From Clostridia bacterium (GTDB taxonomy: Bacteria; Bacillota; Clostridia; Christensenellales; Aristaeellaceae), in the NCBI GenBank assembly GCA_017501255.1, contig JAFVXE010000018.1:49950-113949 (forward strand): DNA of 64,000 bases, given 5' to 3'. Below the pieces are notes generated by a model. It searched no databases. It worked only from the letters and a program-made list of their open reading frames with translations, and had not been told where the DNA came from. Below, piece by piece: positions 1,983-40,032 of this stretch; positions within the stretch are counted from its first letter, which is position 1, and each line of letters starts with the position of its first letter. The position numbers and the translations under genes were made by a program.

Positions 1983-3134
1983 TTACCTCCCTTCGTTGCT
2001 GACGGTATAGCCCTGAGGCAGCGTCAGCACATACACTTCCTCGCCGCAGGCCACGATGGCTTTGCCGTCGGTGAGGGTGCCGATCAGCTCGGTGGCGGGG
2101 TTTTCCAGCGGCAGGGTGAAAGCGGAAAAACGGGTATCATTCAGGCCCGCCCGGAACATCTGATCCTTGGAAAACGCATAGATGGTCTTGTTCCACACCG
2201 TTGCGCCCACGCAGTTGGCGGGCATGGTGAAGCGCTTGTCCTTTGCGCCGCTGAGCAGGCGCAGGGAGGTGATATCGAACAGGTTCTCCGTCTGGCTGGT
2301 GGGAGCAAAGAGCAGCAGCGCATCGCCCCGCTCCGGCACCTCGGTATCCAACAGCCGCCAGCCGTACACCAGCACGCTGGCGCTCAGATCCTGGGCACCA
2401 CGGTAGTCAAAGGTGAGCATCTTGCGGGTGTTGATGACCCGCAGCTTGTTGTTCTCATACAGCACCGAATAGGTGATGGGCTCGCCCAGGGACACCTGAC
2501 CGGTATTCATCTTGCCCACCTCAAAGGTGTTCATCACCGTATTGGCGGCTGTGCCGAACACATCCAGCGCCAGGGTCCACATATACTGGCCGTTGGGGCC
2601 GTAGAAGCCCAGATCCAAAAGGATCAGATTGTTATAGGCGTCGGCTTCCTCGTCCATGTGAGCGCCCTGATGATCCTTCACCACCAGACGGGGCGTTTCC
2701 GTCTTGCCGATGACAGCGCCCACATACTGCTTGCCCACCCGGGCAAACTGGATCTCCTCGCCCAGACTGTCGTTGTAGCTGGAATCGCCGTTCTGATCCA
2801 GAATGTAGATGGTGCTGCCCGTCCAGGCGGCAACGGTGGTATCGTCGCAGTCAAAGCCGGCGTTGGGGCCTACCTGAAACGACCAGCGCACCGTACCGGA
2901 GGACGAGATGCAGTGGATGTTCAGGCCGTCGTAATACAGCAGGTTCTTGCCAAAGGCACGGATATTGTCGCTGTAGGGGCAGGGCATTTTGGCAGCGGTC
3001 ACCACGGTGGTGGGCTTTTCCCGGAAAAGGCTGGATACCAGCCACACCAGCGAACCAATGGCCGCCAGAATCAGCACAAGAATCAGGATGGCTGCCCGCT
3101 GGCTCAGTTTCCGCTTGGGTTTCACTCTTTGCAT
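1983..3134 (-). CDS. membrane-anchored hypothetical protein (possible beta-propeller ectodomain)
   Basis: 383 aa ORF. RBS GGGAG before the ATG. Basic N-terminus plus one TM helix. No motif I can name with certainty. Confidence 0.65.
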   Translation of the reverse strand: MQRVKPKRKLSQRAAILILVLILAAIGSLVWLVSSLFREKPTTVVTAAKMPCPYSDNIRAFGKNLLYYDGLNIHCISSSGTVRWSFQVGPNAGFDCDDTTVAAWTGSTIYILDQNGDSSYNDSLGEEIQFARVGKQYVGAVIGKTETPRLVVKDHQGAHMDEEADAYNNLILLDLGFYGPNGQYMWTLALDVFGTAANTVMNTFEVGKMNTGQVSLGEPITYSVLYENNKLRVINTRKMLTFDYRGAQDLSASVLVYGWRLLDTEVPERGDALLLFAPTSQTENLFDITSLRLLSGAKDKRFTMPANCVGATVWNKTIYAFSKDQMFRAGLNDTRFSAFTLPLENPATELIGTLTDGKAIVACGEEVYVLTLPQGYTVSNEGR

Positions 3135-3197
3135 ATGGTTTCTCCCTCTCTGTGGGACTGTTGGGGCAGCGAATGTTGCAGCCCCGGCTTTCTTGGA

Positions 3198-4955
3198 TCA
3201 GCGATCGGTCACGTATACAGTGGCGGGGGTGGGTTCCGGGGTCATGGTGGGCACAGGGCTGGGGGTGACCGCCGGATCCGGGCTGGGCGTGGGCGTATTG
3301 GCTGCCAGCACATCGGCATAGATGCTTTCCAGCGTCTTGATGCCCGCCTTGCCATCCGGGTACAGGTCATGATCCTTCTGGTATGCCTTGACGGCATTGG
3401 CAGTGCCCTTGTAGTAGCTGCCGGTAACGGTGCCGGTATAGTACCCCAAATCCCGCAGCTTGCACTGGAGCCAGTACACATCCTCACCGGTGGACTCCCG
3501 CTGAAGCTGCCGCAAGGGCATGGGCGGCAGCGCATCCGGCTGATAATCCGGCGCAACGGTGGGCACCGGGGTGGTGGCGGGCCACATCAGCTCCTTGTTG
3601 AGCCGGGGCTGCTTGATGGCATAGCGCAGTTCCTCATCCACGGGCAGATCCTCGGTAATGTGGATGGTGGTGCCGCCCCGGATATTCTCATACACCCACT
3701 TGGCATCGTGAACCATGAGGCGGATGCAGCCGTGGGACGCCCGGGAACCCAGCTTGTTATACGATTTGACACTGAGGGCCATGTTATCCACTTCATTATA
3801 GATCACGCTGTGGAAGGCGATATCCTCGTTGATCTTGGTCCAGTAGCGGGCGTGGCTGCCGTACAGGCTGAAATAGGCCCACTGGGCACGCCGCCCGTCG
3901 GTGACCCAGTCGCCCACATCGCTGGGGGTGCCCACCATGCCGGTGGAGCAGATCATGGTGCGGACGGGGATGGTATACTCGCCGTTTTCATCGATGCCGT
4001 AAACCTTGGTGGCCTGATTCTGCACATCCACCACCACATAATAGGGCACCATGGTGGGTACCGGGGTGGGCCGGGGCGTGCATTCAGCGCTGACCACATC
4101 AGCGGCGTTGAACAGGGCGTTCCAGGTTTCCTCGTCCATTTCGCCATCGCTGACTTTCAGGCCGTTGTATTCCTGAAACACCTTTACCGAAGCCATGGTC
4201 TGGTTCATATAGTAGCCGCTGATGGGGCCGTCAAAGAAGCCCAGTTCGGTGAGGCGGGTCTGCACCCGTTTCACATCCTCGCCTTCGGAGCCGCGGATGA
4301 GCCGCTTCCGGTAGGCCACATTATCCCGGCTGTCGGCAGTGCCCTGACCGTCCTCCACCATCACCACATCGTTGATGTCGCCCACATCGCTGTCCGGGCC
4401 GGGGGTGGGGGTGGGCTGTGCGCCCTTGGCCAGCGCCCGGGTGGAAAACAGCAGCTGCTGGGTGGTCACATCGGCAACGCCGGTCACTTCCAGCCCGTTG
4501 TGCTGCTGAAAAGCCCGCACCGCTGCCTCGGTGGCAGAGCGGAACTTGCCGGTGGCCTTGGTGTTCAGATAGTCAAGGGAAATCAGGTTTTCCTGCAGGC
4601 GGGTCACATCGTCGCCATCCGTGCCGTTGCGCAGCACCCTGTACTGGGCGGTCATCAGAAGGCCGTAGGTGCTTTCATCCACCTGCCCGGTTTCCTCAAT
4701 GCCGTAATCCTTCTGGAAGCGCTTCACCGCTGCAAAGGTACCATCCAGAAAATTGCCGCTGACCTTGCCGGTATAATAGCCCAGATCCTTCAGCCGCTGC
4801 TGGATTTCCGTCACCGGATCACCCTGCATTCCGTAGACAATGCTTTCAAAAGGCGGGGCCGTCTCTGCGCCCACGGTGACCACGCACAGGGCCATCATGG
4901 CGCACAGCAGGGCGCACACCGCTGCCAGCATTAGCAGGGATTGTTTCTGCCTCAT
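3198..4955 (-). CDS. L,D-transpeptidase with repeated peptidoglycan-binding domains
   Basis: 585 aa with a signal peptide. Several PG_binding_1-like repeats (GxxVxxLQxxLxxLGYY). YkuD catalytic motif SHGCIRL. Confidence 0.85.
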   Translation of the reverse strand: MRQKQSLLMLAAVCALLCAMMALCVVTVGAETAPPFESIVYGMQGDPVTEIQQRLKDLGYYTGKVSGNFLDGTFAAVKRFQKDYGIEETGQVDESTYGLLMTAQYRVLRNGTDGDDVTRLQENLISLDYLNTKATGKFRSATEAAVRAFQQHNGLEVTGVADVTTQQLLFSTRALAKGAQPTPTPGPDSDVGDINDVVMVEDGQGTADSRDNVAYRKRLIRGSEGEDVKRVQTRLTELGFFDGPISGYYMNQTMASVKVFQEYNGLKVSDGEMDEETWNALFNAADVVSAECTPRPTPVPTMVPYYVVVDVQNQATKVYGIDENGEYTIPVRTMICSTGMVGTPSDVGDWVTDGRRAQWAYFSLYGSHARYWTKINEDIAFHSVIYNEVDNMALSVKSYNKLGSRASHGCIRLMVHDAKWVYENIRGGTTIHITEDLPVDEELRYAIKQPRLNKELMWPATTPVPTVAPDYQPDALPPMPLRQLQRESTGEDVYWLQCKLRDLGYYTGTVTGSYYKGTANAVKAYQKDHDLYPDGKAGIKTLESIYADVLAANTPTPSPDPAVTPSPVPTMTPEPTPATVYVTDR

Positions 4956-25870: not shown

Positions 25871-25946
25871 GGGGCATTAGCGCAGTTGGTAGCGCACAAC
25901 ACTGGCAGTGTTGGGGTCAGGAGTTCGAGTCTCCTATGCTCCACCA
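25871..25946 (+). tRNA. tRNA-Ala (anticodon GGC), CCA encoded
   Basis: Hand-folded 76-nt cloverleaf: 7-bp acceptor stem with G3:U70, anticodon loop CTGGCAG, T-loop TTCGAGT, discriminator A, CCA. Confidence 0.95.
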
Positions 25947-27899: not shown

Positions 27900-28750
27900 T
27901 GCGTGCAAAGGTTCAAGCCACATTCTACCGGTCCGCCGTGTATGCGGGTACCGTTTTTTCGGTGGGTGTACTGCTGCTGATCGTGGGGTATATCCTCATC
28001 AAGGGCATTCCCAACCTGTCACCGGAGCTGTTTGCATGGAAGTATAACTCCACCAATGTTTCCATGATGCCCGCCATCATCAATACCCTGCTGATGACGC
28101 TGCTTTCCCTGCTGGTCTGCGTACCGCTGGGCATCGGCGCGGCCATCTGGCTGACGGAATACGCCCCGCGAGGCAGCAAACTGGTGAAGCTGGTGCGCAT
28201 GACGGCGGAAACCCTCTCCGGCATTCCCTCCATCATCTATGGCCTGTTCGGTTCGCTGTTTTTCGTGGTTGCGCTGAAGATGGGATTGTCCCTGCTGTCC
28301 GGTGCGCTGACGCTGAGCATAATGGTATTGCCCACCATTATGCGCACTACGGAGGAAGCCCTGCTGGCAGTGCCGGACAGCTACCGGGAGGGCAGCTTCG
28401 GCCTTGGTGCGGGGCGGCTCCGTACCACCTTCAAGGTGGTTCTGCCCAGCGCAGTACCAGGCATCCTCTCCGGCGTGATTCTTGCCATCGGGCGCATTGT
28501 GGGCGAAACTGCCGCCCTCATCTATACCGCCGGTACCGTTGCCAAGGTGCCGGGCAGTCTGCTGGATTCCACCCGCACGCTGGCGGTGCACATGTACACC
28601 ATTTCCACCGAGGGTCTGTACATCGGTCAAAGCTATGCCACCGCCGTGGTGCTCTTGGGTATGGTGCTGCTGATCAACAGCCTGTCTGCGTTCATTGCCA
28701 AAAAAGTCGGACACAGCACAACAGGCAAACAGGAGGAAAAGCACTCATGA
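27899..28750 (+). CDS. pstA: phosphate ABC transporter permease
   Basis: 283 aa permease, translationally coupled to pstC. Confidence 0.9.
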
Positions 28751-29493
28751 AAATAGAGATCAACAACCTTGACTTGCATTACGGCAGTTTTCACGCCCTG
28801 AAAGGCGTGAATCTGGCCATTCATGAAAAAGAGATCACCGCCTTTATCGGCCCCAGCGGCTGTGGCAAATCCACGTTGCTGAAAAGCCTAAACCGCATGA
28901 ACGACTTGGTGGAGGGCTGCAAAATCACCGGGCAGGTGCTGCTGGATGGCATGGATGTATACAAGGAAATGGATGCCGCCCTGCTGCGCAAGCGGGTGGG
29001 CATGGTGTTCCAGAAGCCCAATCCCTTTCCCATGAGCATTTATGACAACATCGCCTTTGGCCCCCGCACCCATGGTATCCATTCCAAGGCCAAGCTGGAT
29101 GATATCATCGAGCGCAGCCTGCGCAATGCCGCCATCTGGGATGAACTGAAAGACCGCCTGAAAAAGGACGCGCTGGGACTGTCCGGCGGTCAGCAGCAGC
29201 GGCTGTGCATTGCCCGGGCGCTGGCGGTGGAGCCGGAGGTTCTGCTGATGGACGAGCCCACCTCCGCCCTTGACCCCATCTCCACCAGCAGGATCGAAGA
29301 CCTTGCCCTGCAGCTCAAGCAGGACTACACCATCGTCATGGTGACCCACAACATGCAGCAGGCTGCCCGCATCTCTGACCGAACCGCCTTTTTCCTGCTG
29401 GGTGAAGTGATCGAATACGACGAGACCGGCAAAATTTTCTCCATGCCCAAGGATCAGCGCACGGAGGACTACATCACCGGCCGCTTTGGCTAA
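28747..29493 (+). CDS. pstB: phosphate ABC transporter ATP-binding protein
   Basis: Walker A GPSGCGKS, signature LSGGQQQR, Walker B LLMDEP. Confidence 0.95.
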
Positions 29494-29506
29494 GGAGGAA
29501 CATCCC

Positions 29507-30163
29507 ATGAGAAACCGTTTTGACGAGCAGCTGAGCCTGCTCAACCACGAATTGCTGGAAATGGGCGCGCTGGTGGAAAGCGCCATCCGCAGCGCCACTA
29601 CTGCATTGGTGAATCAGGATGTGGAGGCGGCCCTTGCCTCCATCACTGCCGATAAGGATGTGGATCAGGCGGAGCGGGATAGCGAATCCCTGTGCCTGAA
29701 ACTGCTTTTGCAGCAGCAACCTGTAGCAAGGGACTTGCGCTTGATCTCCTCAGCCCTTAAAATGATAACGGATATGGAGCGCATCGGTGATCAGGCCTCT
29801 GATATTTCCGAGATTGTCATCTACCTGTCCAGCGAGCCCTATATCAAGCAGCTGGAGCATCTGCCCCTGATGGCGGAAAAGGCTATCCGTATGGTGACGG
29901 CTGCGCTGGATGCCTATGTCCGCAAGGATGTGAAGCTGGCGCAGGAAGTGATGGATATGGATGATGAGATTGACAGCCTGTTCACCACCGTGAAGGACGA
30001 GTTGATCACCCTCATCCGGGGCGATGCGGCAGCCGGCTCCCAGGCCATTGACCTGCTGATGATCGCCAAGTACTACGAGCGCATCGGCGACCACGCCCAG
30101 AACATTGCCGAGTGGGTGGAATACGCCCTTACCGGGCGGCACAAAGGAGTTTTCCTCACATGA
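29507..30163 (+). CDS. phoU: phosphate signalling complex protein PhoU
   Basis: Two PhoU repeats. Start at ATG 29507 with RBS AGGAGG. Confidence 0.9.
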   Translation: MRNRFDEQLSLLNHELLEMGALVESAIRSATTALVNQDVEAALASITADKDVDQAERDSESLCLKLLLQQQPVARDLRLISSALKMITDMERIGDQASDISEIVIYLSSEPYIKQLEHLPLMAEKAIRMVTAALDAYVRKDVKLAQEVMDMDDEIDSLFTTVKDELITLIRGDAAAGSQAIDLLMIAKYYERIGDHAQNIAEWVEYALTGRHKGVFLT

Positions 30164-30837
30164 TCTATTACGTTGAAGACGATGACAACATCCGGGAATT
30201 GGTGGTTTACACCCTTCTGCAGATGAACATGCCCTGTCGGGGCTTTGCAGAGGGCAAGGCCTTCCGGACTGCCATTGCAGAAGAAAAACCCGATCTGGTG
30301 CTTCTGGACATCATGCTGCCCGGGGAGGACGGCATGAGCCTGTTGCAGTTTCTCCGGGAAAACCAGCAGACGGCGGAGATCCCTGTCATCATGCTCACCG
30401 CCAAGGGTACCGAAATGGATAAGGTGCAGGGGCTGGATCACGGAGCGGATGACTACATGACCAAGCCCTTCGGCATGGCAGAGCTGGTGGCCCGTATCCG
30501 GGCCCGCCTGCGCCGCACAGGTACAAAAACAGATGCGGAGACACTTCGTTGCGGTACGCTTTCCATCGACCGCCGTGCCCACAAGGCCTTTGTTGATGAT
30601 GAGGAAGTGCCCCTGACCTTGAAGGAATATGATCTGCTGCTCCTGCTGATGGAAAACAGCGGCGCCGTTTTTACCCGGGAGCAGCTATTGGAGCGCATCT
30701 GGGAGATGGGCTATGACGGCGGTAGCCGCACAGTGGATGTGCATGTGCAGACGCTCCGCAGCAAGCTGGGGCACTGCGCCTGCATGATCGAAACCGTGCG
30801 CGGCGTGGGCTATCGGTTTGGAGGCGATCCGGCATGA
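30160..30837 (+). CDS. OmpR-family response regulator (Pho regulon type)
   Basis: Receiver domain (DD...D...K) plus a winged-helix C-terminus. ATG 30160 overlaps the phoU stop. Confidence 0.9.
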   Translation: MIYYVEDDDNIRELVVYTLLQMNMPCRGFAEGKAFRTAIAEEKPDLVLLDIMLPGEDGMSLLQFLRENQQTAEIPVIMLTAKGTEMDKVQGLDHGADDYMTKPFGMAELVARIRARLRRTGTKTDAETLRCGTLSIDRRAHKAFVDDEEVPLTLKEYDLLLLLMENSGAVFTREQLLERIWEMGYDGGSRTVDVHVQTLRSKLGHCACMIETVRGVGYRFGGDPA

Positions 30838-32492
30838 CCAGACGCATTTTCCGCAGCATCGTTCTGACGGCGGTGCTGGCACTGCTGCTGACCTCCGCGC
30901 TGCTGGTAGGGACGCTGTACAATGTGTACGAAGACCGCATCTCTGCCGAGCTTCGGACGGAGGCGGCGTATATTGTCCGCGGTTTGGATATGACGCAGGA
31001 TGATTTGAGCTACTTCACATCATTCAAGCCCCAAAACCGTGTAACGCTCATTGCCCCGGATGGTTCGGTGCTCTACGACAGCGATACCGATGAGACCCGC
31101 ATGAGCAGCCATGCCCAGCGTCCGGAGGTGCTCGCGGCTATCGAAAGTGGCACCGGTGAAGCCACCCGCTATTCCGATACCCTTTCTGAAGTGACGATCT
31201 ACTATGCCCGCCGAACGGCTGACGGCAATGTGCTGCGTATCGCCAGCACCCGCTCTTCTGTGCTGGGTGTCTTCCTGAGCGTGGCCCCGCAGATCATCGT
31301 GATGCTGCTGGCGGTGGCAGCCCTGTCGCTGCTGATCGCCCAGCATTCTTCCCGCCAGATCGTGCAGCCCATCAACGAGCTGAATCTGGACGAACCCCTT
31401 GAAAACGACGTGTATGACGAACTGGCCCCGCTGCTTACCCGCATGGACAAGCAGCATCATCAGATCCGCCAACAGATGCAAGATCTCGCCCGCGCCCACG
31501 CTGATCTCAACGCCATTATGGAAAGCATGCGCGAGGGTCTGATCCTGTTGGACAGGGAGAGTCGCATTGTTTCCATCAACCACAGCGCGCAGACCATCTT
31601 TGGCGTAAAGGATTCGTTTGCGCCGGGAGCTGACCTGCTGACCATCTGCCGGGATGCTGACCTGCTGGAAATCGTCAAAGCAGCGCAGTCGGGCGAAGCC
31701 GGCGATGCGATCCTGCCCCGTGACAGCCGGATGTACCGCATCTTTGCCAGCCCTGTTCTGCGGGAGGAAAAGGTGCGCGGTGTGGTGCTGCTGGCGTTGG
31801 ATATCTCTGCCCGCTATGCTGCTGAAGCCAGCCGCCGGGAGTTTACCGCCAACGTCTCCCATGAGCTGAAAACGCCGCTCACATCCATTTCCGGCTACGC
31901 AGAGATCATCGAGAGCGGCATTGCCCGGCAGGAGGATGTGCCTGCCTTTGCCGGAAAGATCCATGCAGAGGCAAAGCGGTTGGTAGCACTGGTGAACGAT
32001 ATTCTTGAGCTGTCCCAGCTGGATGAGAAGCAGGGTCTTGGGGCGAAAGAGCCGGTTGCCTTGCTGCCCATGCTGAATGAACTGGCTGACCGTTTCCTGC
32101 CTGTTGCGCAGGAGAAAGGGGTTGAGCTGTCCGTAGAAGGCAGCGAGGCTACCGTGGATGGCTATCCGATGCTTCTGCGGGAACTGTTCCACAACCTGAT
32201 GGACAATGCCGTCAAGTACACGCCTGCAGGCGGCAGCGTGACCGTTCGGCTGTCACAGCAGGATGGACGCCTCTGCTGCTCTGTACAGGACACCGGTATC
32301 GGCATCCCCAAAGAGCATCAGGCCCATGTGTTTGAGCGTTTCTACCGGGTGGACAAGAGCCACTCCAAGCAGACCGGCGGCACCGGGCTTGGGCTGGCGA
32401 TCGTGAAGCATGCGGCGCAGGTGCATCAGGCACAGGTGGAGCTGGAAAGCCAGCCGGGGGAAGGCACTACGGTTTCTGTGCTGTTTCATTGA
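30834..32492 (+). CDS. sensor histidine kinase (PhoR-like)
   Basis: 552 aa with 2 TM, a PAS region, H-box SHELKTPLTSI, and N/G boxes. Confidence 0.9.
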   Translation: MTRRIFRSIVLTAVLALLLTSALLVGTLYNVYEDRISAELRTEAAYIVRGLDMTQDDLSYFTSFKPQNRVTLIAPDGSVLYDSDTDETRMSSHAQRPEVLAAIESGTGEATRYSDTLSEVTIYYARRTADGNVLRIASTRSSVLGVFLSVAPQIIVMLLAVAALSLLIAQHSSRQIVQPINELNLDEPLENDVYDELAPLLTRMDKQHHQIRQQMQDLARAHADLNAIMESMREGLILLDRESRIVSINHSAQTIFGVKDSFAPGADLLTICRDADLLEIVKAAQSGEAGDAILPRDSRMYRIFASPVLREEKVRGVVLLALDISARYAAEASRREFTANVSHELKTPLTSISGYAEIIESGIARQEDVPAFAGKIHAEAKRLVALVNDILELSQLDEKQGLGAKEPVALLPMLNELADRFLPVAQEKGVELSVEGSEATVDGYPMLLRELFHNLMDNAVKYTPAGGSVTVRLSQQDGRLCCSVQDTGIGIPKEHQAHVFERFYRVDKSHSKQTGGTGLGLAIVKHAAQVHQAQVELESQPGEGTTVSVLFH

Positions 32493-32604: not shown

Positions 32605-34293
32605 TTAACCCTGCACAGCCTCCGCAGCCGTTTCCTTGCCAAAGAGCTTCTTCACGCCCTGGACGGCAACGATCACGCCCAGCACGAACAGCGCAACGGC
32701 AAAGCTGCCCTGCAGCAGGTCGCCGCCCAGATTGGCGGTGGTGCCGGTAAAGATGCCGCCGAACTTGCCAAAGATGGTCATGCCCAGAGCGGTCAGGGTC
32801 ACAGCCAGCATGATGGCCATGGGGGCCCACAGCATCCAGCCCTTGCGCTTGGTGCGCTTGAGGAATACGGCGCAGGCGATGAGGGCCAGTGCGCTGAGCA
32901 GCTGGTTGGCAGAGCCGAACAGGGGCCAGATGTTGGCATAGCCCGCCTTGGCAAGGGCGTAGGCCATCACCAGCGTAGCCACGGTGGCGGTGTACTTGTT
33001 GGTGAGGAACTTCTTGACCGGACTCATGTTTTCATCGGTGTCGGTGGAATCAAGGAAGAACTCCTGGAAAGCCAGACGGCCTACGCGGGCAACGGAGTCC
33101 AGCGAGGTGAGGGCGAAGGCAGATACGGACAGGTTGATCAGCGTAAAGGCCACGTTCTCGGGGATGCCGATCTTGCCCAGGAAGCCGGAGATGGCAGAGG
33201 CAAACACCACAGCCGGAGTACCGGAAGCCACCTGCGCGCCACTGGACACAGCGCCCACAGCGATCAGGGCGATCACGGCCAGCAGGCTCTCCAGCAGCAT
33301 AGAACCGAAGGAGATGGGCAGCATGTGCTTCTCATTCTGCACCTGCTTGGAGGCGGTGCCGGAGGAAACCAGCGAATGGAAGCCGGAGACAGCGCCGCAG
33401 GCGATGGTCACAAACAGGATGGGGAACATATGCTGACCGTTGACCGTAAAGCCATTGAAGGCGTTCAGGTTCATCTGGGGATTGGCCACCAGCACGCCCA
33501 CCACAGCCGAAACGATCATGGCTACCAGCAGGTAGCTGTTCAGGTAGTCACGGGGCTGGAGCAGCGCCCACACCGGCACGATGGAGGCAACAGCGATGTA
33601 CAAGAATACGATCAGGTGCCAGGTGCCGGTGGGCACATACATGGGCAGCGCCATGCCCAGCACGATGCAAAGCACCAGCAGGCCCACCGCGATGGCGGTA
33701 TTCACCAGCGGTTTGAAGCGGCACACCTTCAGCACCACGCCCAGCGTGACCGCTGCAAGGATGAACAGCATGGAGGTGGTAGCCACCTGACCGTTCGCCA
33801 GCGAGACATCCGGAGTGGCGGCAAAGCCGTTGAAGGTATTGGCAACCACGTCCGCAAAGGCAGCAACCACAAGGATGGAGAATAGCCAAACAAACAAGGT
33901 AAAGAGCTTTTTACCGATCTTGCCGATATACAGCTCAATGATATAGCCGATGGTGCGGCCCTTATTGCGAACAGAGGCATACATGGAAACAAAGTCCTGC
34001 ACAGCGCCGAAGAACAGGCCGCCTACCAGCACCCACAGCAGCACCGGCACCCAGCCGAAGATCGCCGCCTGAATGGGGCCGTTGATGGGGCCAGCGCCGG
34101 CAATGGAGGCAAACTGGTGACCGAATACCACACCGGGGGTGGTGGGGGTATAGTCTACACCATCCTCCATTTCATAAGCAGGGGTCTTTGCCTTGGGGTC
34201 GATGCCCCAGGTCTTGGCCAGCCAGCGTCCGTAGAGAAGATATCCTGCGCCCAGCACAACCAGTGCGATGAGCATAATGGTGATTCCATTCAT
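32605..34293 (-). CDS. cstA: carbon starvation protein A family transporter
   Basis: 562 aa multi-TM with a CstA-type N-terminus (MNGITIMLIALVVLGAGYLLYGRWLAK). Start at ATG 34293 with RBS AAAGGA. The upstream part of the track ORF is the T-box leader. Confidence 0.9.
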   Translation of the reverse strand: MNGITIMLIALVVLGAGYLLYGRWLAKTWGIDPKAKTPAYEMEDGVDYTPTTPGVVFGHQFASIAGAGPINGPIQAAIFGWVPVLLWVLVGGLFFGAVQDFVSMYASVRNKGRTIGYIIELYIGKIGKKLFTLFVWLFSILVVAAFADVVANTFNGFAATPDVSLANGQVATTSMLFILAAVTLGVVLKVCRFKPLVNTAIAVGLLVLCIVLGMALPMYVPTGTWHLIVFLYIAVASIVPVWALLQPRDYLNSYLLVAMIVSAVVGVLVANPQMNLNAFNGFTVNGQHMFPILFVTIACGAVSGFHSLVSSGTASKQVQNEKHMLPISFGSMLLESLLAVIALIAVGAVSSGAQVASGTPAVVFASAISGFLGKIGIPENVAFTLINLSVSAFALTSLDSVARVGRLAFQEFFLDSTDTDENMSPVKKFLTNKYTATVATLVMAYALAKAGYANIWPLFGSANQLLSALALIACAVFLKRTKRKGWMLWAPMAIMLAVTLTALGMTIFGKFGGIFTGTTANLGGDLLQGSFAVALFVLGVIVAVQGVKKLFGKETAAEAVQG

Positions 34294-34371
34294 TCCAAAA
34301 CATCCTTTCTTTTTTGTTTCGCTTATCTCTGGCATTTGCGCCGCGGTCGCATCCGTCGGGGAAAGCGTGCT

Positions 34372-34676
34372 ATATATAAAAGCCCGTCCCTCACCGATCC
34401 TGAAAAACGATCTGTAAGAGACGGGCTGTATATCCCGCGATACCACTCTTGTTGCCGCATCCAGTGCGGCCTGCTCTGCCACATCGACCGCAAGGGGTGA
34501 ATGTGCTCTCCTGTAACGTGGAGACGACGGTCTGACCTATCGTCCTCCCGATCCCGGGGGGAGGTTTCAGCGGACTGCTCATGAGGGATACGCTGACCTT
34601 TCATGCTCGTCATGCCTCGCACCAACCGGCATTTCTCTGGGGACGCTGTGAAAGCGCGCTTGTCTCAATCACTGCA
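34372..34676 (-). promoter_or_regulatory. T-box riboswitch leader of cstA
   Basis: Minus-strand RNA features: K-turn (UGC-AGU-GA.../...GA-GCA), AG bulge AGAGA, distal loop GGUUGGUGCGA, F-box-like ACGUUA. T-box AGAG-UGGUAUC-GCGGG with antiterminator partner CCCGU-CUCU. A competing terminator follows, then UUUUAU. Confidence 0.8.
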
Positions 34677-34699
34677 TTGAATATGTGGCTTACGCGAAT

Positions 34700-34729
34700 A
34701 AAATACGCCTGCTTTGCCCAATTTGTCAA
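34700..34729 (-). promoter_or_regulatory. promoter of the T-box/cstA transcript
   Basis: On the minus strand: TTGACA (34729-34724), 18-nt spacer, TATTTT (34705-34700). Confidence 0.45.
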
Positions 34730-34829: not shown

Positions 34830-35996
34830 ATGCTCTTGGACGAAACCCACGAATTTTTGGTGCCTGATTACTACGAACATTTTGCCTGTAAAATGGGCGC
34901 GTGTCGCTCAGCCTGCTGCGAAGGCTGGCCCATCTCTTTTTCGCTGGATGACTATTATCACCTGATGAGTCAGGAATGCTCCCCGGAGCTGAGGCGCAAG
35001 CTGGATACCGCTTTGCACATCAAGCTGTCGCCCACGCCGGATGCCTATGCGGAGATCGCGCCCCGGTTTGACGGAGCCTGCCCCATGCGCATGGAGGACG
35101 GGCGCTGCGCCCTTCATGCTGAAATGGGCGAGGGAGCGCTGAGCTATGTTTGCAGGCTCTATCCCCGGGGCGTACGCACGGACAATGGATTTGAATGTTC
35201 CTGCGCCAACAGCTGCGAAGCGGTGTTGGAACTGCTTTTTTCCCGGGATGAGCCCATCGAGTTTGTCGAAAGGGAGCTGTCCTTTAACTTGCCACGGCAG
35301 AGTCAGCCCACCATCCGGTTTGAAACCATGGGCAAGGAACAGGAGATCCGCCTGTGGCTGATCCGGCATATGCAGAACCAGACTCTGCCCATGCCCCAGC
35401 GGATGATGGCCATGGGTCACGCACTGGCAGCGCTGGATGATGCTCTTGTTGCCCGCGATGCACAGCAGGTGGAACGCCTGCTCCGTGGTCAGCAGCGGAT
35501 CCAGCCGCTTGGGCCCAAGGAACTGTCTCAGGGGCATTTGGATTTCGGTCTCTGCTTCGCTTCCGGGCTGATCGAGCTGCTGGATCAGCGCAGTGACAGC
35601 ATCCGTGCCTACGGTGAGGATGCGCTGGCTTATTTTGACGGTTCTTTCGACCGATATGTGGAAGCCCGCGACCATTTTGAAACGGTGCTGCCAAAGTGGG
35701 ATATCTGGTTTGAGCACATGATGGTGAACCATATGTTCTTCGCCCGCTTTCCTTTTCAGGATCGTCCCGTCAGCCTGCCGGACGAGTTTATCGCCCTGTG
35801 CGCTGTTTTTGCCATGCTGCGCTTCCTTGGTATCGGGCATATGCGGGATCAAGCCGATCCCAGCCACTTTGTGGATGTGGCGGCTGCTGTGTTCCGGCTG
35901 GTGGATCACACCGCCTTTGACCACTATGCAGCCGGTATGATGAAGGAGCTGGGCTGTGACGACTGGGACCGGGTACATGATCTGATCAGCCTGTAA
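34830..35996 (+). CDS. FliB-like (flagellin lysine-N-methylase family) cysteine-cluster protein
   Basis: N-terminal CxxxxCxxxCC cluster (FACKMGACRSACCEGW), as in the FliB/YkgJ-type family. Start ambiguous: TTG 34821, GTG 34827 or ATG 34830. Confidence 0.65.
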   Translation: MLLDETHEFLVPDYYEHFACKMGACRSACCEGWPISFSLDDYYHLMSQECSPELRRKLDTALHIKLSPTPDAYAEIAPRFDGACPMRMEDGRCALHAEMGEGALSYVCRLYPRGVRTDNGFECSCANSCEAVLELLFSRDEPIEFVERELSFNLPRQSQPTIRFETMGKEQEIRLWLIRHMQNQTLPMPQRMMAMGHALAALDDALVARDAQQVERLLRGQQRIQPLGPKELSQGHLDFGLCFASGLIELLDQRSDSIRAYGEDALAYFDGSFDRYVEARDHFETVLPKWDIWFEHMMVNHMFFARFPFQDRPVSLPDEFIALCAVFAMLRFLGIGHMRDQADPSHFVDVAAAVFRLVDHTAFDHYAAGMMKELGCDDWDRVHDLISL

Positions 35997-36104
35997 ACTG
36001 ACCCGGATCCGCAAAGGGCAGGAGAACAAAATCAGCTGGATGTAAACAAACAGAAGAACCCCGGTATCCATAGGCCGCTATGACCTGTGAATACCGGGGT
36101 TTGC

Positions 36105-37277
36105 TTATTCATGCCGCAATGCCTCAATGGGTTTCAGCCCGGAGGCTTTGGCTGCCGGATACAGACCGAACACCACGCCGATGAACACCGAAAACCCGAT
36201 GGCCAGCAGCGCGACCGATGGCGAGAACACCATGGTCATGCCGATGACTGGGGCCAGAAACTTACACGCTGCCCACGAAAGCCCAAGGCCGATCAGACCG
36301 CCCATCAGGCTGACAGTAAGCGCCTCGATCAAAAACTGGCTGAGGATATTGCCGCGGGTGGCGCCAATGGCTTTGCGGATGCCGATCTCCCTCGTGCGTT
36401 CGGATACGGATACCAGCATGATATTCATGATGCCGATGCCGCCCACCAGCAGGGAGATGGCGGCAATGCCCGCCAGCATCAGCGTCAGCTGGGAGGTGGA
36501 CTCGTTGAGGGCTTCCAGCATGGCCGACTGGTTGTTGATGCGGTAGCTGCCGGAGGTGGTGGATTGGCTCATAAGCTTTTCCATGTAGGCTTCCACTTCG
36601 CTCTGGGCCAGATCGATGGTATCGGAGCCGGTGGCGGACACATAGAAGCTGCTGATGCCCTTGGAGCGGAACAGCCGCTCGCCCAGAGAGAAGGGGATCA
36701 CGATCAGGTTGTCACCGCTGCCGGAAACGCTGTTGCCAATTTCGTCAAGCACGCCCACCACGGTGAAGGTATACCCCTGATAGGTAAAGGTACAGCCCAC
36801 CGCATTCACCGAGCCGAACAGCTCCACCGCCGCCTCCTGCCCCAGCACCGCCACAAAGGAACGGTTGTCGTGATCCGGTTCCGCCAGAAAGCGGCCATAG
36901 CGCAGCGACCAGTTGCGGATCTTGTCATACCCCGGCGTGGTGGCGATCAGGCTGCCATCCTCGTACTGGGTCAGCCCAGCTTTGACCGTGCCGGAGGACG
37001 TGAGCACCGGGGCCACATGAGCGATGGTTTCACTGCTCATCGTCATCTGGCGCAGGCCTTTCAGGGTAACCGGGTTGTTGCGCCGCACATTCACGCTGAC
37101 GCTGAGCAGATTGGTGCCCATGCCCTCGATGTTGCTGACAACAGCAGCATTGGTGCCCTGACCGATGGCGGTGAGCACCACGATGGATACCACGCCGATC
37201 ACGATGCCCAGCATGGTCAGGAAGGAACGCATTTTATTGGATAGAATGGCCTTGAAGGCCATGGACATACTTTCCAT
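36105..37277 (-). CDS. ABC transporter permease (MacB/FtsX type)
   Basis: 390 aa: N-terminal TM, large extracytoplasmic domain, C-terminal FtsX-like 3 TM. Confidence 0.85.
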
Positions 37278-37279
37278 GC

Positions 37280-37990
37280 CTATGCCTCCTTTGCCAGCGC
37301 GGCTTTGTCTGCGGAAGCGGATGAGGTATGCTCATGCACCCTGCCGTCCACAATGCGGATCAACCGATCTGCCCGGGCTGCCACATCGCTGTCGTGGGTG
37401 ATAAGCACGATGGTATTGCCAGCGGCGTGCAGCTCGTCCAGCATGGCCATGATCTCCTGCCCGGTACGGCTGTCCAGATTGCCTGTGGGTTCATCGGCGA
37501 GAATCAGCTTGGGTCTGGTCACCAGTGCCCGGGCAATGGCGCAGCGCTGCTGCTGACCGCCGGACAGTTCCGTGGGCTTGTGGCCCATCCGCTGACCAAG
37601 GCCCACTTTTTCCAGCGCCGCTTTGGCCCGCTTGCGCCGCTCCCGCCTGCCCACCTTCTGGTAGATCAGCGGCAGTTCCACGTTTTCCAGCGCGGTCAGC
37701 TTTTGCAGCAGGTGAAACCCCTGAAAGATGAACCCGATGTGCCTGTTGCGCAGCCGTGCCAGCTGCCGGGAGGAATAGCTGCCGATCTTCTTGCCTGCCA
37801 GCTGGTATTCGCCGCTGTCGGCGGTATCCAGACAGCCGATGATGTTCATCAGCGTGGACTTGCCGCTGCCGGAAGGCCCGATGATGGCCACATACTCACC
37901 CTCGCCCACATGCAGGGACACATGATCCAGCGCGTAGATGCTCTCGCCACCCAGCTTGTATTGCTTTATGATGTTATTCATATAGATCAT
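37280..37990 (-). CDS. ABC transporter ATP-binding protein (MacB/LolD type)
   Basis: Walker [17 protein letters not shown], Walker B ILADEP. Confidence 0.9.
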
Positions 37991-38015
37991 AGCGGTACTC
38001 CTTTCAGCACCGGCA

Positions 38016-39713
38016 TCAATTGCCGCTTATGCCGCCAGGAGCGGTACGCCCGCCGCCGGAGCCGCCCGAGCCGCCGCCCTGATTGGTGCGTCCACCACCG
38101 GAGCCGCCTGTTCCGGTGCCGGTGCCGGTGCCGGGACGGGTAAAGCCTCCCTCAGGACGATCCATCATGCCGCCGGGCATCTGCAGTTCGCTGCCGGGCA
38201 TTTGCATGCCAGCACCGCCCTGCTGATCCGTGGTGTTGGTCGTAGCTGCACTACGCACCACCAGCACCTGATCCCCAGCCCGGAGGCCGCCGGTCACAGC
38301 TGCGTAATCCTCATTGGACAGGCCGGTATTCACATAGGTTTTCACGCCCGGTTCCTCTTCCGTGGCAACAAAATCCGGACTGTACAGCCACACATAGCTG
38401 CCCCGGGCATCGCTCTGCAAAGCTGCCAGCGGCACCAGCAGAACATTTTCCTGCTGACCCACGGCAATGGTTACCGTGCCGTTCATGCCAAGCTTCAGTT
38501 GCTCATCCGCTTCCAGCTGAATGGTTACATCATAGCCGGTAATGCCGCTGGAGGCTGTGCCCAGCGTGGAGATATAGGTAACCGTCGCGTTGTAGGTCTT
38601 ATCGGTGATGGCATCCATGGCAACGGTGGCGCTTTGCCCGGTCTGGACATGGATGATGTCCAGCTCATCCACGCTGATGGTCATCTGATCCGGCATGCCC
38701 ACATAGAGGGTCATCAAGGCCTCATCCTTGGCAACCGTCTGCCCATCGGTCATGGTCACGCCGCTGACGATGCCGCCCTGATCCGCCCGCAGCACAGGGT
38801 CTGCCTTCAAAGCGCGCAGGGTAGCCAACTGTTCCACCAGCGATGACCGCTGGGCAAGGGTGTCCCGATATTCCTGAGTAGGCTCCAGATAGCTGACCAC
38901 AAAGGCACTGTCCTTCTTGTCGCAGTACTTATTGATCCGCAAAAGCTCTGTGGTGATGATGCCATGGGCTGTGCTGAACACTTCCAGCGGCATATGAATG
39001 GCGCATTCAGCGGTGATGGTACTGTCATCGGGCAGCAGCACCGTTACCGTATCGCCGGGATTGGCCGCCAGATCGGAAAAGGTCAGCGTGACGGTTTCAT
39101 CCTTCACTTCTGTAACAGCCGCAGAATACACATTCTCTGCGGCGTTGGTCACTGTCAGCCGGTCACCCAGAGCGATGCCTTCTGTTACAGGGATCTCCGC
39201 GCTCATCTTGCCATCCAGCGACAGCACATACAGGCAACCGTGCTCTGCCACCACATCCTGTACCCGGTCACCTTTGAAGCCGTACAGTTCCTTCACACGG
39301 CCCTTGATGGGCGTGTAAAGCGTCTGCTGGCTTTCATAGCTGGCAGCGAGGCTTACCAGCGTGTCATCCACTGCCTCCAGCTCGGTTTGCAGCGTATAGA
39401 TAGCCGTATCCAGAGAAGCTGTATCCACTGTCGCCAACGGGTCGCCCGCCGCAACCTGCTGGCCTGTCTTCACCTGCACGCTGTCCAGTGTCATAGCAGC
39501 AGGGGCGCTCCATGTGGCAGTCTGCGCAATGGTCAGCGAGCCGGTGCTGATGACCTCCTGGGAAATACTGCCGTTGGTTACGCTTACCGGGGTATACCGC
39601 AGGGATGGAGCAGTGGTCGCTTCCGTCTTCTGCTGTTGGTAAAGATAGTATCCGCCATAGGCCAGACCTGCTAAAACCAGCAGGGTAAACAAGGTTTTCA
39701 AAAAACGCTTCAT
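38016..39713 (-). CDS. HlyD-family efflux adaptor with Gly-rich C-terminal tail
   Basis: N-terminal TM anchor and adaptor-like barrel/lipoyl regions. ATG 39713 lies 7 nt after GGAGG; the track start, TTG 39719, is too close to the RBS. The tail is GTGTGTGTGGSGGG-rich. Confidence 0.8.
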   Translation of the reverse strand: MKRFLKTLFTLLVLAGLAYGGYYLYQQQKTEATTAPSLRYTPVSVTNGSISQEVISTGSLTIAQTATWSAPAAMTLDSVQVKTGQQVAAGDPLATVDTASLDTAIYTLQTELEAVDDTLVSLAASYESQQTLYTPIKGRVKELYGFKGDRVQDVVAEHGCLYVLSLDGKMSAEIPVTEGIALGDRLTVTNAAENVYSAAVTEVKDETVTLTFSDLAANPGDTVTVLLPDDSTITAECAIHMPLEVFSTAHGIITTELLRINKYCDKKDSAFVVSYLEPTQEYRDTLAQRSSLVEQLATLRALKADPVLRADQGGIVSGVTMTDGQTVAKDEALMTLYVGMPDQMTISVDELDIIHVQTGQSATVAMDAITDKTYNATVTYISTLGTASSGITGYDVTIQLEADEQLKLGMNGTVTIAVGQQENVLLVPLAALQSDARGSYVWLYSPDFVATEEEPGVKTYVNTGLSNEDYAAVTGGLRAGDQVLVVRSAATTNTTDQQGGAGMQMPGSELQMPGGMMDRPEGGFTRPGTGTGTGTGGSGGGRTNQGGGSGGSGGGRTAPGGISGN

Positions 39714-40032
39714 TTCCAATCCTCCTTTTGGAATTTTCGCGTTGTCAGTTTAGCACCCGCCTGTGACCAAAGTATGAACTTTTGAAAAAGGATAGGATAA
39801 TTTTGTGCAAAGGAATTAATTGCTATATAGGGTGGCTGATTGTATTGCTTTGTTGTTGAAAAATGATCATTGTTGTTATGGGATATTATCGTGCTGGTAT
39901 GGATTTATTACAATCCGAACGATGCCCAACGAAAGGAAATACAATTCGCATTGATACACAGTGTGGCAATGTGTTTTTGCCATATACAGAAAAAGGCCAG
40001 CCCCCTATGTGAAATAGAAGGCTGGTCTTGCA

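Follow-up and report, generated by a model that had tools for sequence, protein, structure and literature searches.

A predicted isoleucine-specific T-box leader ahead of a cstA-family transporter gene in a Christensenellales genome

The transcriptional T-box leaders of the Bacillota (Rfam family RF00230; for example, the ileS leaders that read AUC) have in common a set of Stem I elements, the position of the specifier codon, an F-box, a Stem III, an antiterminator bulge containing UGGN and a mutually exclusive terminator. Transporters known to be controlled in this way belong, according to one survey, to the ABC, APC, DAACS, LIVCS, MFS, NHAC and NSS families; CstA is not among them (PMC2494555). 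We have analysed a stretch of 64,000 nucleotides (here called the window) from a gut Clostridia bacterium of the Christensenellales (GenBank assembly GCA_017501255.1, contig JAFVXE010000018.1, positions 49,950 to 113,949). On its minus strand, a complete transcriptional T-box leader (window positions 34375-34684) lies ahead of a gene for a CstA-family transporter. The leader has all of the elements listed above and, very probably, is specific for tRNA-Ile, acts by attenuating transcription and controls this single gene. It differs from known T-boxes in its target, which is neither a synthetase gene, a biosynthetic operon nor one of the listed transporter families. It also scores below the Rfam gathering threshold and has a minimal specifier loop without the S-turn consensus and a C after the codon.

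The described proteins with which the transporter can be compared are the Escherichia coli pyruvate/H+ symporters CstA and BtsT (TC 2.A.114). It shares with them the Pfam family PF02554 and the character of a secondary transporter with many membrane helices. However, it is shorter (562 amino acids (aa) compared with 701 and 716 for CstA and BtsT) and fails the equivalog model for E. coli CstA. Control would be exerted by a tRNA-sensing RNA, whereas CRP and CsrA act on E. coli CstA and BtsSR acts on BtsT. Proteins of the CstA family are common among bacteria. The characterised ones are the E. coli and Salmonella pyruvate carriers only, which are narrowly specific for this 2-oxo acid (PMC7730263). 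No solved structure was found for the family.

Two described systems resemble the arrangement itself. In Bacillus methanolicus MGA3, a T-box likewise lies directly ahead of a carbon starvation gene, cstA1. It is presented as a table row and one paragraph, with no specifier stated, and the authors are doubtful that it controls cstA1 (PMC4342826). This was the only mention found in the literature searched on T-boxes together with cstA, carbon starvation or isoleucine. The second is provided by those brnQ genes (LIVCS family) that carry T-boxes. Here too, a single-gene transporter lies behind an Ile, Leu or Val T-box and is on when the cognate tRNA is uncharged, although the protein family is unrelated to CstA.

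Architecture of the leader and its gene

The leader and the gene are both read on the minus strand. Stem I (34576-34676) was defined by direct reading, by alignment to the Rfam model and by RNAalifold on a MAFFT alignment of 35 leaders. Direct reading gives a K-turn at the base (UGC 34676-34674 and AGUGAU 34673-34668, with UGA 34581-34579 and GCA 34578-34576), a lower helix (UGAG 34667-34664 with CUCA 34585-34582), an AG bulge (AGAGA, 34638-34634) and the distal loop GGUUGGUGCGA (34627-34617), which is closed by AUGCC (34632-34628) and GGCAU (34616-34612). The triplet AUC (34587-34589; alignment columns 104-106) is followed by C34586 and then by the CUCA of the lower helix. An internal bulge in upper Stem I, GUCA (34594-34597; alignment columns 96-99), is not the specifier (see below). 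In the Rfam alignment, positions 34514-34575 correspond to model positions 104-147 and include the Stem II region and the F-box ACGUUA (34519-34514). Stem III (GCCGC/GCGGC, 34454-34470), also placed by the Rfam alignment, has compensatory changes in all five of its pairs.

The T-box sequence and antiterminator (34417-34449) were identified by folding and by pairing across leaders. AGAG (34449-34446) and GCGGG (34438-34434) flank the seven-base bulge UGGUAUC (34445-34439) and pair with CUCU (34420-34417) and CCCGU (34425-34421), respectively. The UGGU of the bulge is complementary to the 3' end, ACCA, of a tRNA. A terminator scan and folding also reveal an intrinsic terminator (34375-34427), with a 14-pair stem and an inner 4-pair stem (hairpin 34427-34381) followed by UUUAUAU. 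The terminator and the antiterminator are mutually exclusive because both use CCCGUCUCU (34425-34417). The terminator folds with -30.8 kcal/mol (z -8.66; equalled by 0 of 200 shuffles) and the antiterminator, in which the expected seven-base bulge is formed, with -10 kcal/mol. The fold of the whole leader is not clearly better than that of shuffled sequences (z -1.7). This is to be expected of a switch with alternative folds and the parts were therefore folded separately.

Three features of a T-box leader are thus present: the K-turn, AG bulge and distal loop of Stem I; an antiterminator whose seven-base bulge holds UGGN; and an intrinsic terminator that competes with the antiterminator for a common strand. 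In addition, the RF00230 model is matched over its full length (model positions 1-219, window 34414-34681; 71.4 bits, E 2e-15 with permissive filters). A preliminary description of the window, made from the letters alone, had proposed a T-box with K-turn, AG bulge, distal loop, F-box, antiterminator and terminator on the minus strand. All of these were found where it had placed them. The transcription-termination mode that it had assigned agrees with the shared strand and the folding energies. A promoter-like site (34700-34729, minus strand; TTGACA, an 18-base spacer and TATTTT) lies about 20 bases ahead of the leader; it was found by a consensus scan with 10 of 12 matches and is a consensus match alone.

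The transporter gene (32605-34293, minus strand) runs from an ATG at 34293 to a stop at 32605, with a ribosome-binding site, GAAAGGA, about 8 bases ahead of the ATG. Its 562-aa product (called here P0001) belongs to Pfam family PF02554, CstA (484.7 bits, E 5e-145, cut-off 27). The terminator and the start codon are 82 bases apart on the same strand with no intervening gene, so that the leader is indeed, as first described, directly ahead of a CstA-family gene. With the NCBIfam equivalog NF011590, which represents the E. coli pyruvate symporter CstA, P0001 gives 229.3 bits compared with a cut-off of 1188, and the match is limited to positions 33-403 of the 701-position profile. Judged by these profile scores, P0001 and the E. 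coli protein are not orthologues. No second CstA homologue was found in the genome.

The specifier was located using a rule derived from the alignment: the codon is the unpaired triplet which, together with one further base, stands on the 3' side between the upper helix and the lower helix. This rule was checked on seven synthetase T-boxes of the same genome (2.89 Mb, 61 contigs, 95.8% complete). It gives AUC for ileS, GUC for valS, AUG for both metG genes, UCC for serS, UUC for pheS and CCC for proS, the correct amino acid in every case. When applied to the window leader, it yields AUC (34589-34587), C34586 and CUCA. The specifier, as read from the sequence, is AUC for isoleucine, the codon also read by the ileS leader. 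The preliminary description had named AUC as an alternative to GUC followed by A (valine); it is AUC that lies at the position taken by the codon in all seven synthetase T-boxes. The second Ile T-box of the genome, which precedes a ligase gene, also has AUC followed by C.

The same position was read in 51 model-aligned leaders of cstA genes, a few of which are the same locus fetched twice. The codon is AUC in 44, CUC in 4, CUG in 2 and GUC in 1. In a sister clade, CUC (locus L036) and CUG (L084 and L097) form a synonymous Leu pair. Since only AUC, CUC, CUG and GUC are read, the link between the transporter and branched-chain amino acids that had been proposed from the single leader is strengthened. 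The base after the specifier is C in 22 of the 51 leaders and A in the other 29; C follows the codon in 18 of the 44 AUC leaders and in the CUC and CUG leaders, except for two with CUC-A. The UGGU of the bulge implies a tRNA with discriminator A73, in line with the preliminary description. In general, the discriminator of tRNA-Ile agrees with UGGU.

The following steps are taken from the known T-box mechanism. Transcription would start near 34690. Stem I would then dock the tRNA, with the elbow at the AG bulge and distal loop and the anticodon GAU at AUC. If the tRNA-Ile is uncharged, its ACCA would pair with UGGU and stabilise the antiterminator, allowing read-through into cstA. If it is charged, the stronger terminator (-30.8 compared with -10 kcal/mol) would form and transcription would stop near 34378. 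The net effect would be production of the transporter under isoleucine shortage.

Conservation and spread of the leader

Stem I was aligned with MAFFT using 35 non-redundant leaders from several Clostridia families and folded with RNAalifold without guidance. This recovers four helices (K-turn closing, lower, upper and distal), with compensatory changes on both sides in 18 of 21 pairs. For the 20 pairs retained, of which 18 have changes on both sides, 91.3% of cells are paired; sliding the partners by 1-3 columns lowers this to 34-47%. Covariation gives a score of 0.627, compared with 0.10-0.14 in the slid controls, and this score is reached by 0 of 500 shuffles. In the antiterminator of the 35 leaders, helix A1 is 97.9% paired, with one pair occurring 17 times as AU and 17 times as GC, and helix A2 is 88.6% paired. 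UGGU is invariant across all leaders. For Stem III, where the MAFFT alignment is of low quality, 67% of cells are paired. Comparison of orthologous leaders, suggested earlier as a way of checking the T-box, consequently speaks in its favour: the pairings of Stem I and the antiterminator are kept and covary well above the slid controls.

MAFFT left the 3' arm out of register between groups and the terminator was therefore folded leader by leader, from the antiterminator 3' arm to the next U run. A hairpin (about -7 to -33 kcal/mol) with a U tract, overlapping the antiterminator 3' arm, was found in 31 of the 35. For four, including that of the window, the U-run cut-off stopped inside the hairpin; the terminator of the window is the one folded complete, separately, as given above.

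Within the genus, five of 36 other genomes carry cstA, and four of these five have a T-box directly upstream. The leader in genome G010 scores 93.2 bits, which is over the gathering score, while no T-box was found ahead of the cstA of G011 (66% identity). The cstA homologue of G010 (55% identity; L018, G010:C86:2604-4607) has an in-frame TAA. It has kept this full T-box of 93.2 bits, with the specifier CUC (Leu) in place of AUC.

A scan of species-representative genomes, mostly metagenome-assembled genomes from gut or rumen, provided 80 loci whose proteins are 64-97% identical. The closest are labelled Christensenellales or Clostridia. Sufficient upstream sequence was available for 73 of the loci, and in 47 of these a motif search and a locally built Stem I covariance model revealed a T-box ahead of cstA. 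The genera include Blautia, Dorea, Oliverpabstia, Eubacterium, Faecousia, Cellulosilyticum, Holtiella, Anaerocolumna and Limiplasma. Two weak motif matches near the start codon (L090 and L094) were rejected as not being T-boxes. On the protein tree the T-box occurs among members of both main clades and was gained or lost at least 10 times. Of 400 genomes sampled evenly across the phylum, 127 contain a CstA-family homologue. The T-box link is the mark of a single clade of short CstA proteins, within which it is patchy. As to the check proposed earlier, whether related cstA genes keep the leader and the specifier, most have the leader and 44 of 51 leaders have AUC, but 26 of the 73 loci have no T-box and 7 of the 51 leaders have another codon.

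In the window, cstA is monocistronic, since a convergent PhoR-like kinase gene comes next. This PhoR/PnpS-like histidine kinase gene, convergent with the end of cstA, is part of a phosphate-regulation cluster (28747-32492, plus strand) which also includes a PstB-like ABC ATPase, PhoU and an OmpR-type response regulator. Upstream of the leader there is a MacB-type efflux set (34908-39719, minus strand) consisting of an HlyD-like adaptor, an ABC ATPase and a MacB/FtsX permease. A 387-aa open reading frame (ORF) in this region (34908-36071) has no Pfam match and is overlapped by a 391-aa ORF on the opposite strand. A tRNA-Ala(GGC) gene (25871-25943, plus strand, 65 bits) is the sole match in a whole-window Rfam scan at gathering scores, in which no T-box is listed.

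Isoleucine supply and the substrate of the transporter

No match was found in this genome for ilvB, ilvC or brnQ, and for leuC there were weak aconitase-like matches and nothing better. An ilvD-like gene (C3:28487-30136) gives 525.6 bits, below the cut-off of 618, and there are two Aminotran_4 genes. From this gene content, branched-chain amino-acid synthesis via the standard route is probably absent in the organism.

Several other T-boxes of the genome precede genes that do not encode synthetases. The second Ile T-box (G000:C14:36334-36568, minus strand, L006; 94.7 bits, AUC-C) lies ahead of a gene for a 754-aa HTH-cupin-AMP-binding (acyl-CoA ligase) fusion (L100:3014-5278, minus strand). A gene for a MaoC-like dehydratase lies immediately downstream of this fusion on the same strand, with a short-chain dehydrogenase gene further on. 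A Phe T-box (UUC; G000:C54:1255-1517, plus strand, L005) precedes a phenylacetate-CoA-ligase-like gene and then an ACT-pair gene (L103:1541-2878 and 2895-3329, plus strand). The gene for a 2-oxoacid:ferredoxin oxidoreductase alpha-subunit (POR_N) is located 2 kb beyond these, and the locus is consistent with formation of phenylalanine from phenylacetate. A T-box with CUG at the codon position (Leu; G000:C40:7800-8045, minus strand, L003) precedes a gene for an 843-aa protein in which a xylose-isomerase-like TIM barrel is fused to an AMP-binding ligase (L101:1202-3733, minus strand). An NhaC-type transporter gene (L105:2580-4493, minus strand) lies on the same strand about 700 bases past this fusion. 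There is also a Tyr T-box on an aminotransferase gene. Reductive carboxylation of imported acids to amino acids is a classic trait of rumen bacteria, the genetics of which are poorly mapped. The T-boxes on ligases and on an aminotransferase are suggestive of amino-acid synthesis from imported acids by this route. As a separate observation, each of two MetRS-like genes has its own Met (AUG) T-box (G000:C60:130427-130624, L004, and C11:31288-31569, L009); the proteins, of 673 aa and 547 aa, were named from their first residues.

The switch would tie cstA to isoleucine supply and, in some relatives, to that of leucine or valine. As to the substrate, an isoleucine precursor acid (2-methylbutyrate or 2-oxo-3-methylvalerate) is the candidate that we place first, with somewhat less than even confidence. 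Isoleucine or the branched-chain amino acids themselves would come second and are also a serious possibility.

A transporter of peptides, as in the historical annotation of CstA, could be served by a switch of exactly the kind described, and cstA mutants of E. coli, Campylobacter and Salmonella are poorer in peptide use (cited in PMC7730263). However, peptide uptake is not specific for a single amino acid, yet the leaders read only Ile, Leu or Val codons, and E. coli CstA was specific for pyruvate in direct assays (PMC7730263). We consider peptides unlikely as the substrate. Less likely still is that the transporter behind this switch carries pyruvate as a carbon skeleton for branched-chain synthesis. 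Ile, Val and Leu have pyruvate as a common precursor, and the biochemically characterised members of the family are all narrow pyruvate/H+ symporters (PMC7730263). But with ilvB and ilvC not found in this 95.8% complete genome, conversion of pyruvate to isoleucine by the standard route is probably impossible. P0001, moreover, reaches 229 bits compared with the 1188 of the E. coli CstA equivalog cut-off, and a pyruvate carrier would not be expected to follow single branched-chain codons.

Returning to branched-chain acids, we offer a wider proposal, as a speculation more doubtful than the substrate assignments from which it grows. Instead of pyruvate or peptides, the clade may take up branched-chain acids, either 2-methylbutyrate or the 2-oxo acids that correspond to Ile, Leu and Val, in a T-box-controlled salvage route of gut anaerobes that lack the ilv pathway; the Phe T-box on the phenylacetate-CoA-ligase-like gene would represent a parallel route for phenylalanine. 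In such a route, uptake by CstA would be followed by activation by a T-box-controlled acyl-CoA ligase, reductive carboxylation by a 2-oxoacid:ferredoxin oxidoreductase and, finally, transamination to isoleucine.

Counter-evidence, remaining alternatives and significance

A number of observations weigh against a tRNA-Ile-specific T-box that controls cstA. The first is the Rfam score, 71.4 bits compared with a curated RF00230 gathering score of 93. The genome contains 12 RF00230 matches, six above 93 bits and six below: ileS 81.9, serS 80.6, one metG 76.5, pheS 75.1, cstA 71.4 and proS 54.5 bits. Because half of the T-boxes of the genome, synthetase ones included, fall below the threshold, the score does not refute the T-box. 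Genuine T-boxes of this lineage are frequently under the gathering cut-off. The preliminary description had set a score below gathering as grounds for rejection. Formally the leader is on the wrong side of that line, but the criterion is a poor one, as the five other T-boxes below 93 illustrate. The second concerns the specifier loop and its surroundings. The S-turn consensus AGUA/GAA is absent: the 5' side is ACAA and the 3' side consists of the codon plus one base. The loop is small, with ACAA opposite AUCC (about 4 + 4 bases). The consensus is also missing from the ileS leader of this genome. The base after the codon is C34586, not the usual purine, and the terminator is followed by a short U tract, of UUUU or, should its first U be paired, UUU. 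The small loop, the C and the short U tract probably explain part of the low Rfam score. The word 'canonical', used in the preliminary description, thus goes too far in view of the score, the missing S-turn consensus and the base after the codon.

Other counter-evidence concerns the tRNA, expression and the distribution of the leader. None of the 42 tRNAs found by ARAGORN in the assembly is a tRNA-Ile; the gene for tRNA-Ile(GAU) probably belongs to an rRNA operon missing from the assembly. In this genome, the tRNAs for Val and Leu carry A73 and are also compatible with UGGU, which renders the discriminator test uninformative. Contigs from two metatranscriptome runs overlap parts of cstA with 95-100% identity (one corresponds to 34178-34399). 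They may be of DNA origin and give no start, end or strand, and hence no sign of expression or read-through. The 26 close orthologues without a T-box include 12 that were rechecked with Rfam at E 0.001, again with none found. No Stem I match was obtained for the 29 best distant homologues of the 127 (47-65% identity), and an Rfam recheck of 15 of these gave no T-box. There is no conserved operon partner: the same-strand downstream ORFs vary from locus to locus (phosphofructokinase-like, MATE-like and lipoprotein-like, by eye), so that gene context is uninformative on the substrate. Finally, the genome encodes two LIV-type binding proteins, so isoleucine uptake need not involve CstA.

Three further readings would each change the target amino acid or the target gene, and we consider all of them very improbable. 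One is a serine switch, with the reading frame of the codon moved downstream by one base, to UCC or UCA, so that the variable first base is excluded. This frame gives UCN in 49 of the 51 leaders, and the serS T-box here also has UGGU although tRNA-Ser has G73. It leaves no unpaired base before the helix, contrary to all seven synthetase controls, and misreads the ileS leader of this genome as Ser. In the Limiplasma leaders (L084 and L097) it gives UGC (Cys) where the sister L036 has UCC, while the standard frame gives CUG and CUC, both Leu.

A valine switch reading GUC-A (34597-34594), as preferred in the preliminary description, is no more credible. GUCA is unpaired in Stem I of the window, with a purine after GUC, and one orthologous leader (L029, Cellulosilyticum) does have GUC, though at the true specifier position. 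However, GUCA is 8 bases upstream of that position, inside upper Stem I. The bulge is peculiar to Christensenellales-like leaders, the columns being paired in most leaders outside this group (95-97 with 34-36), and the rule that is valid for seven synthetase T-boxes gives AUC.

A T-box that is a remnant, or part of another transcription unit, as its describers proposed for that of B. methanolicus cstA1, would agree with the coverage gap between T-box and cstA1 in the B. methanolicus transcriptome (PMC4342826), although a closed switch would look alike, but here the element is on the cstA strand, 82 gene-free bases from terminator to ATG, and the linkage recurs in about 50 leaders of several families whose helices are kept by compensatory changes, whereas a decaying element would not covary.

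As an RNA, the leader is ordinary in mechanism and its value is as a functional clue for one CstA clade. A T-box reports the amino acid that is served by its gene, and some 50 leaders with only Ile, Leu and Val codons provide a testable substrate range for this clade, which occurs in the Christensenellales and in gut genera that are abundant, Blautia and Dorea among them. With no standard branched-chain pathway found, the switch would be one component of the cell's means of acquiring an essential amino acid. In combination with the acyl-CoA ligases under T-box control, it suggests that amino acids are made from fermentation acids.

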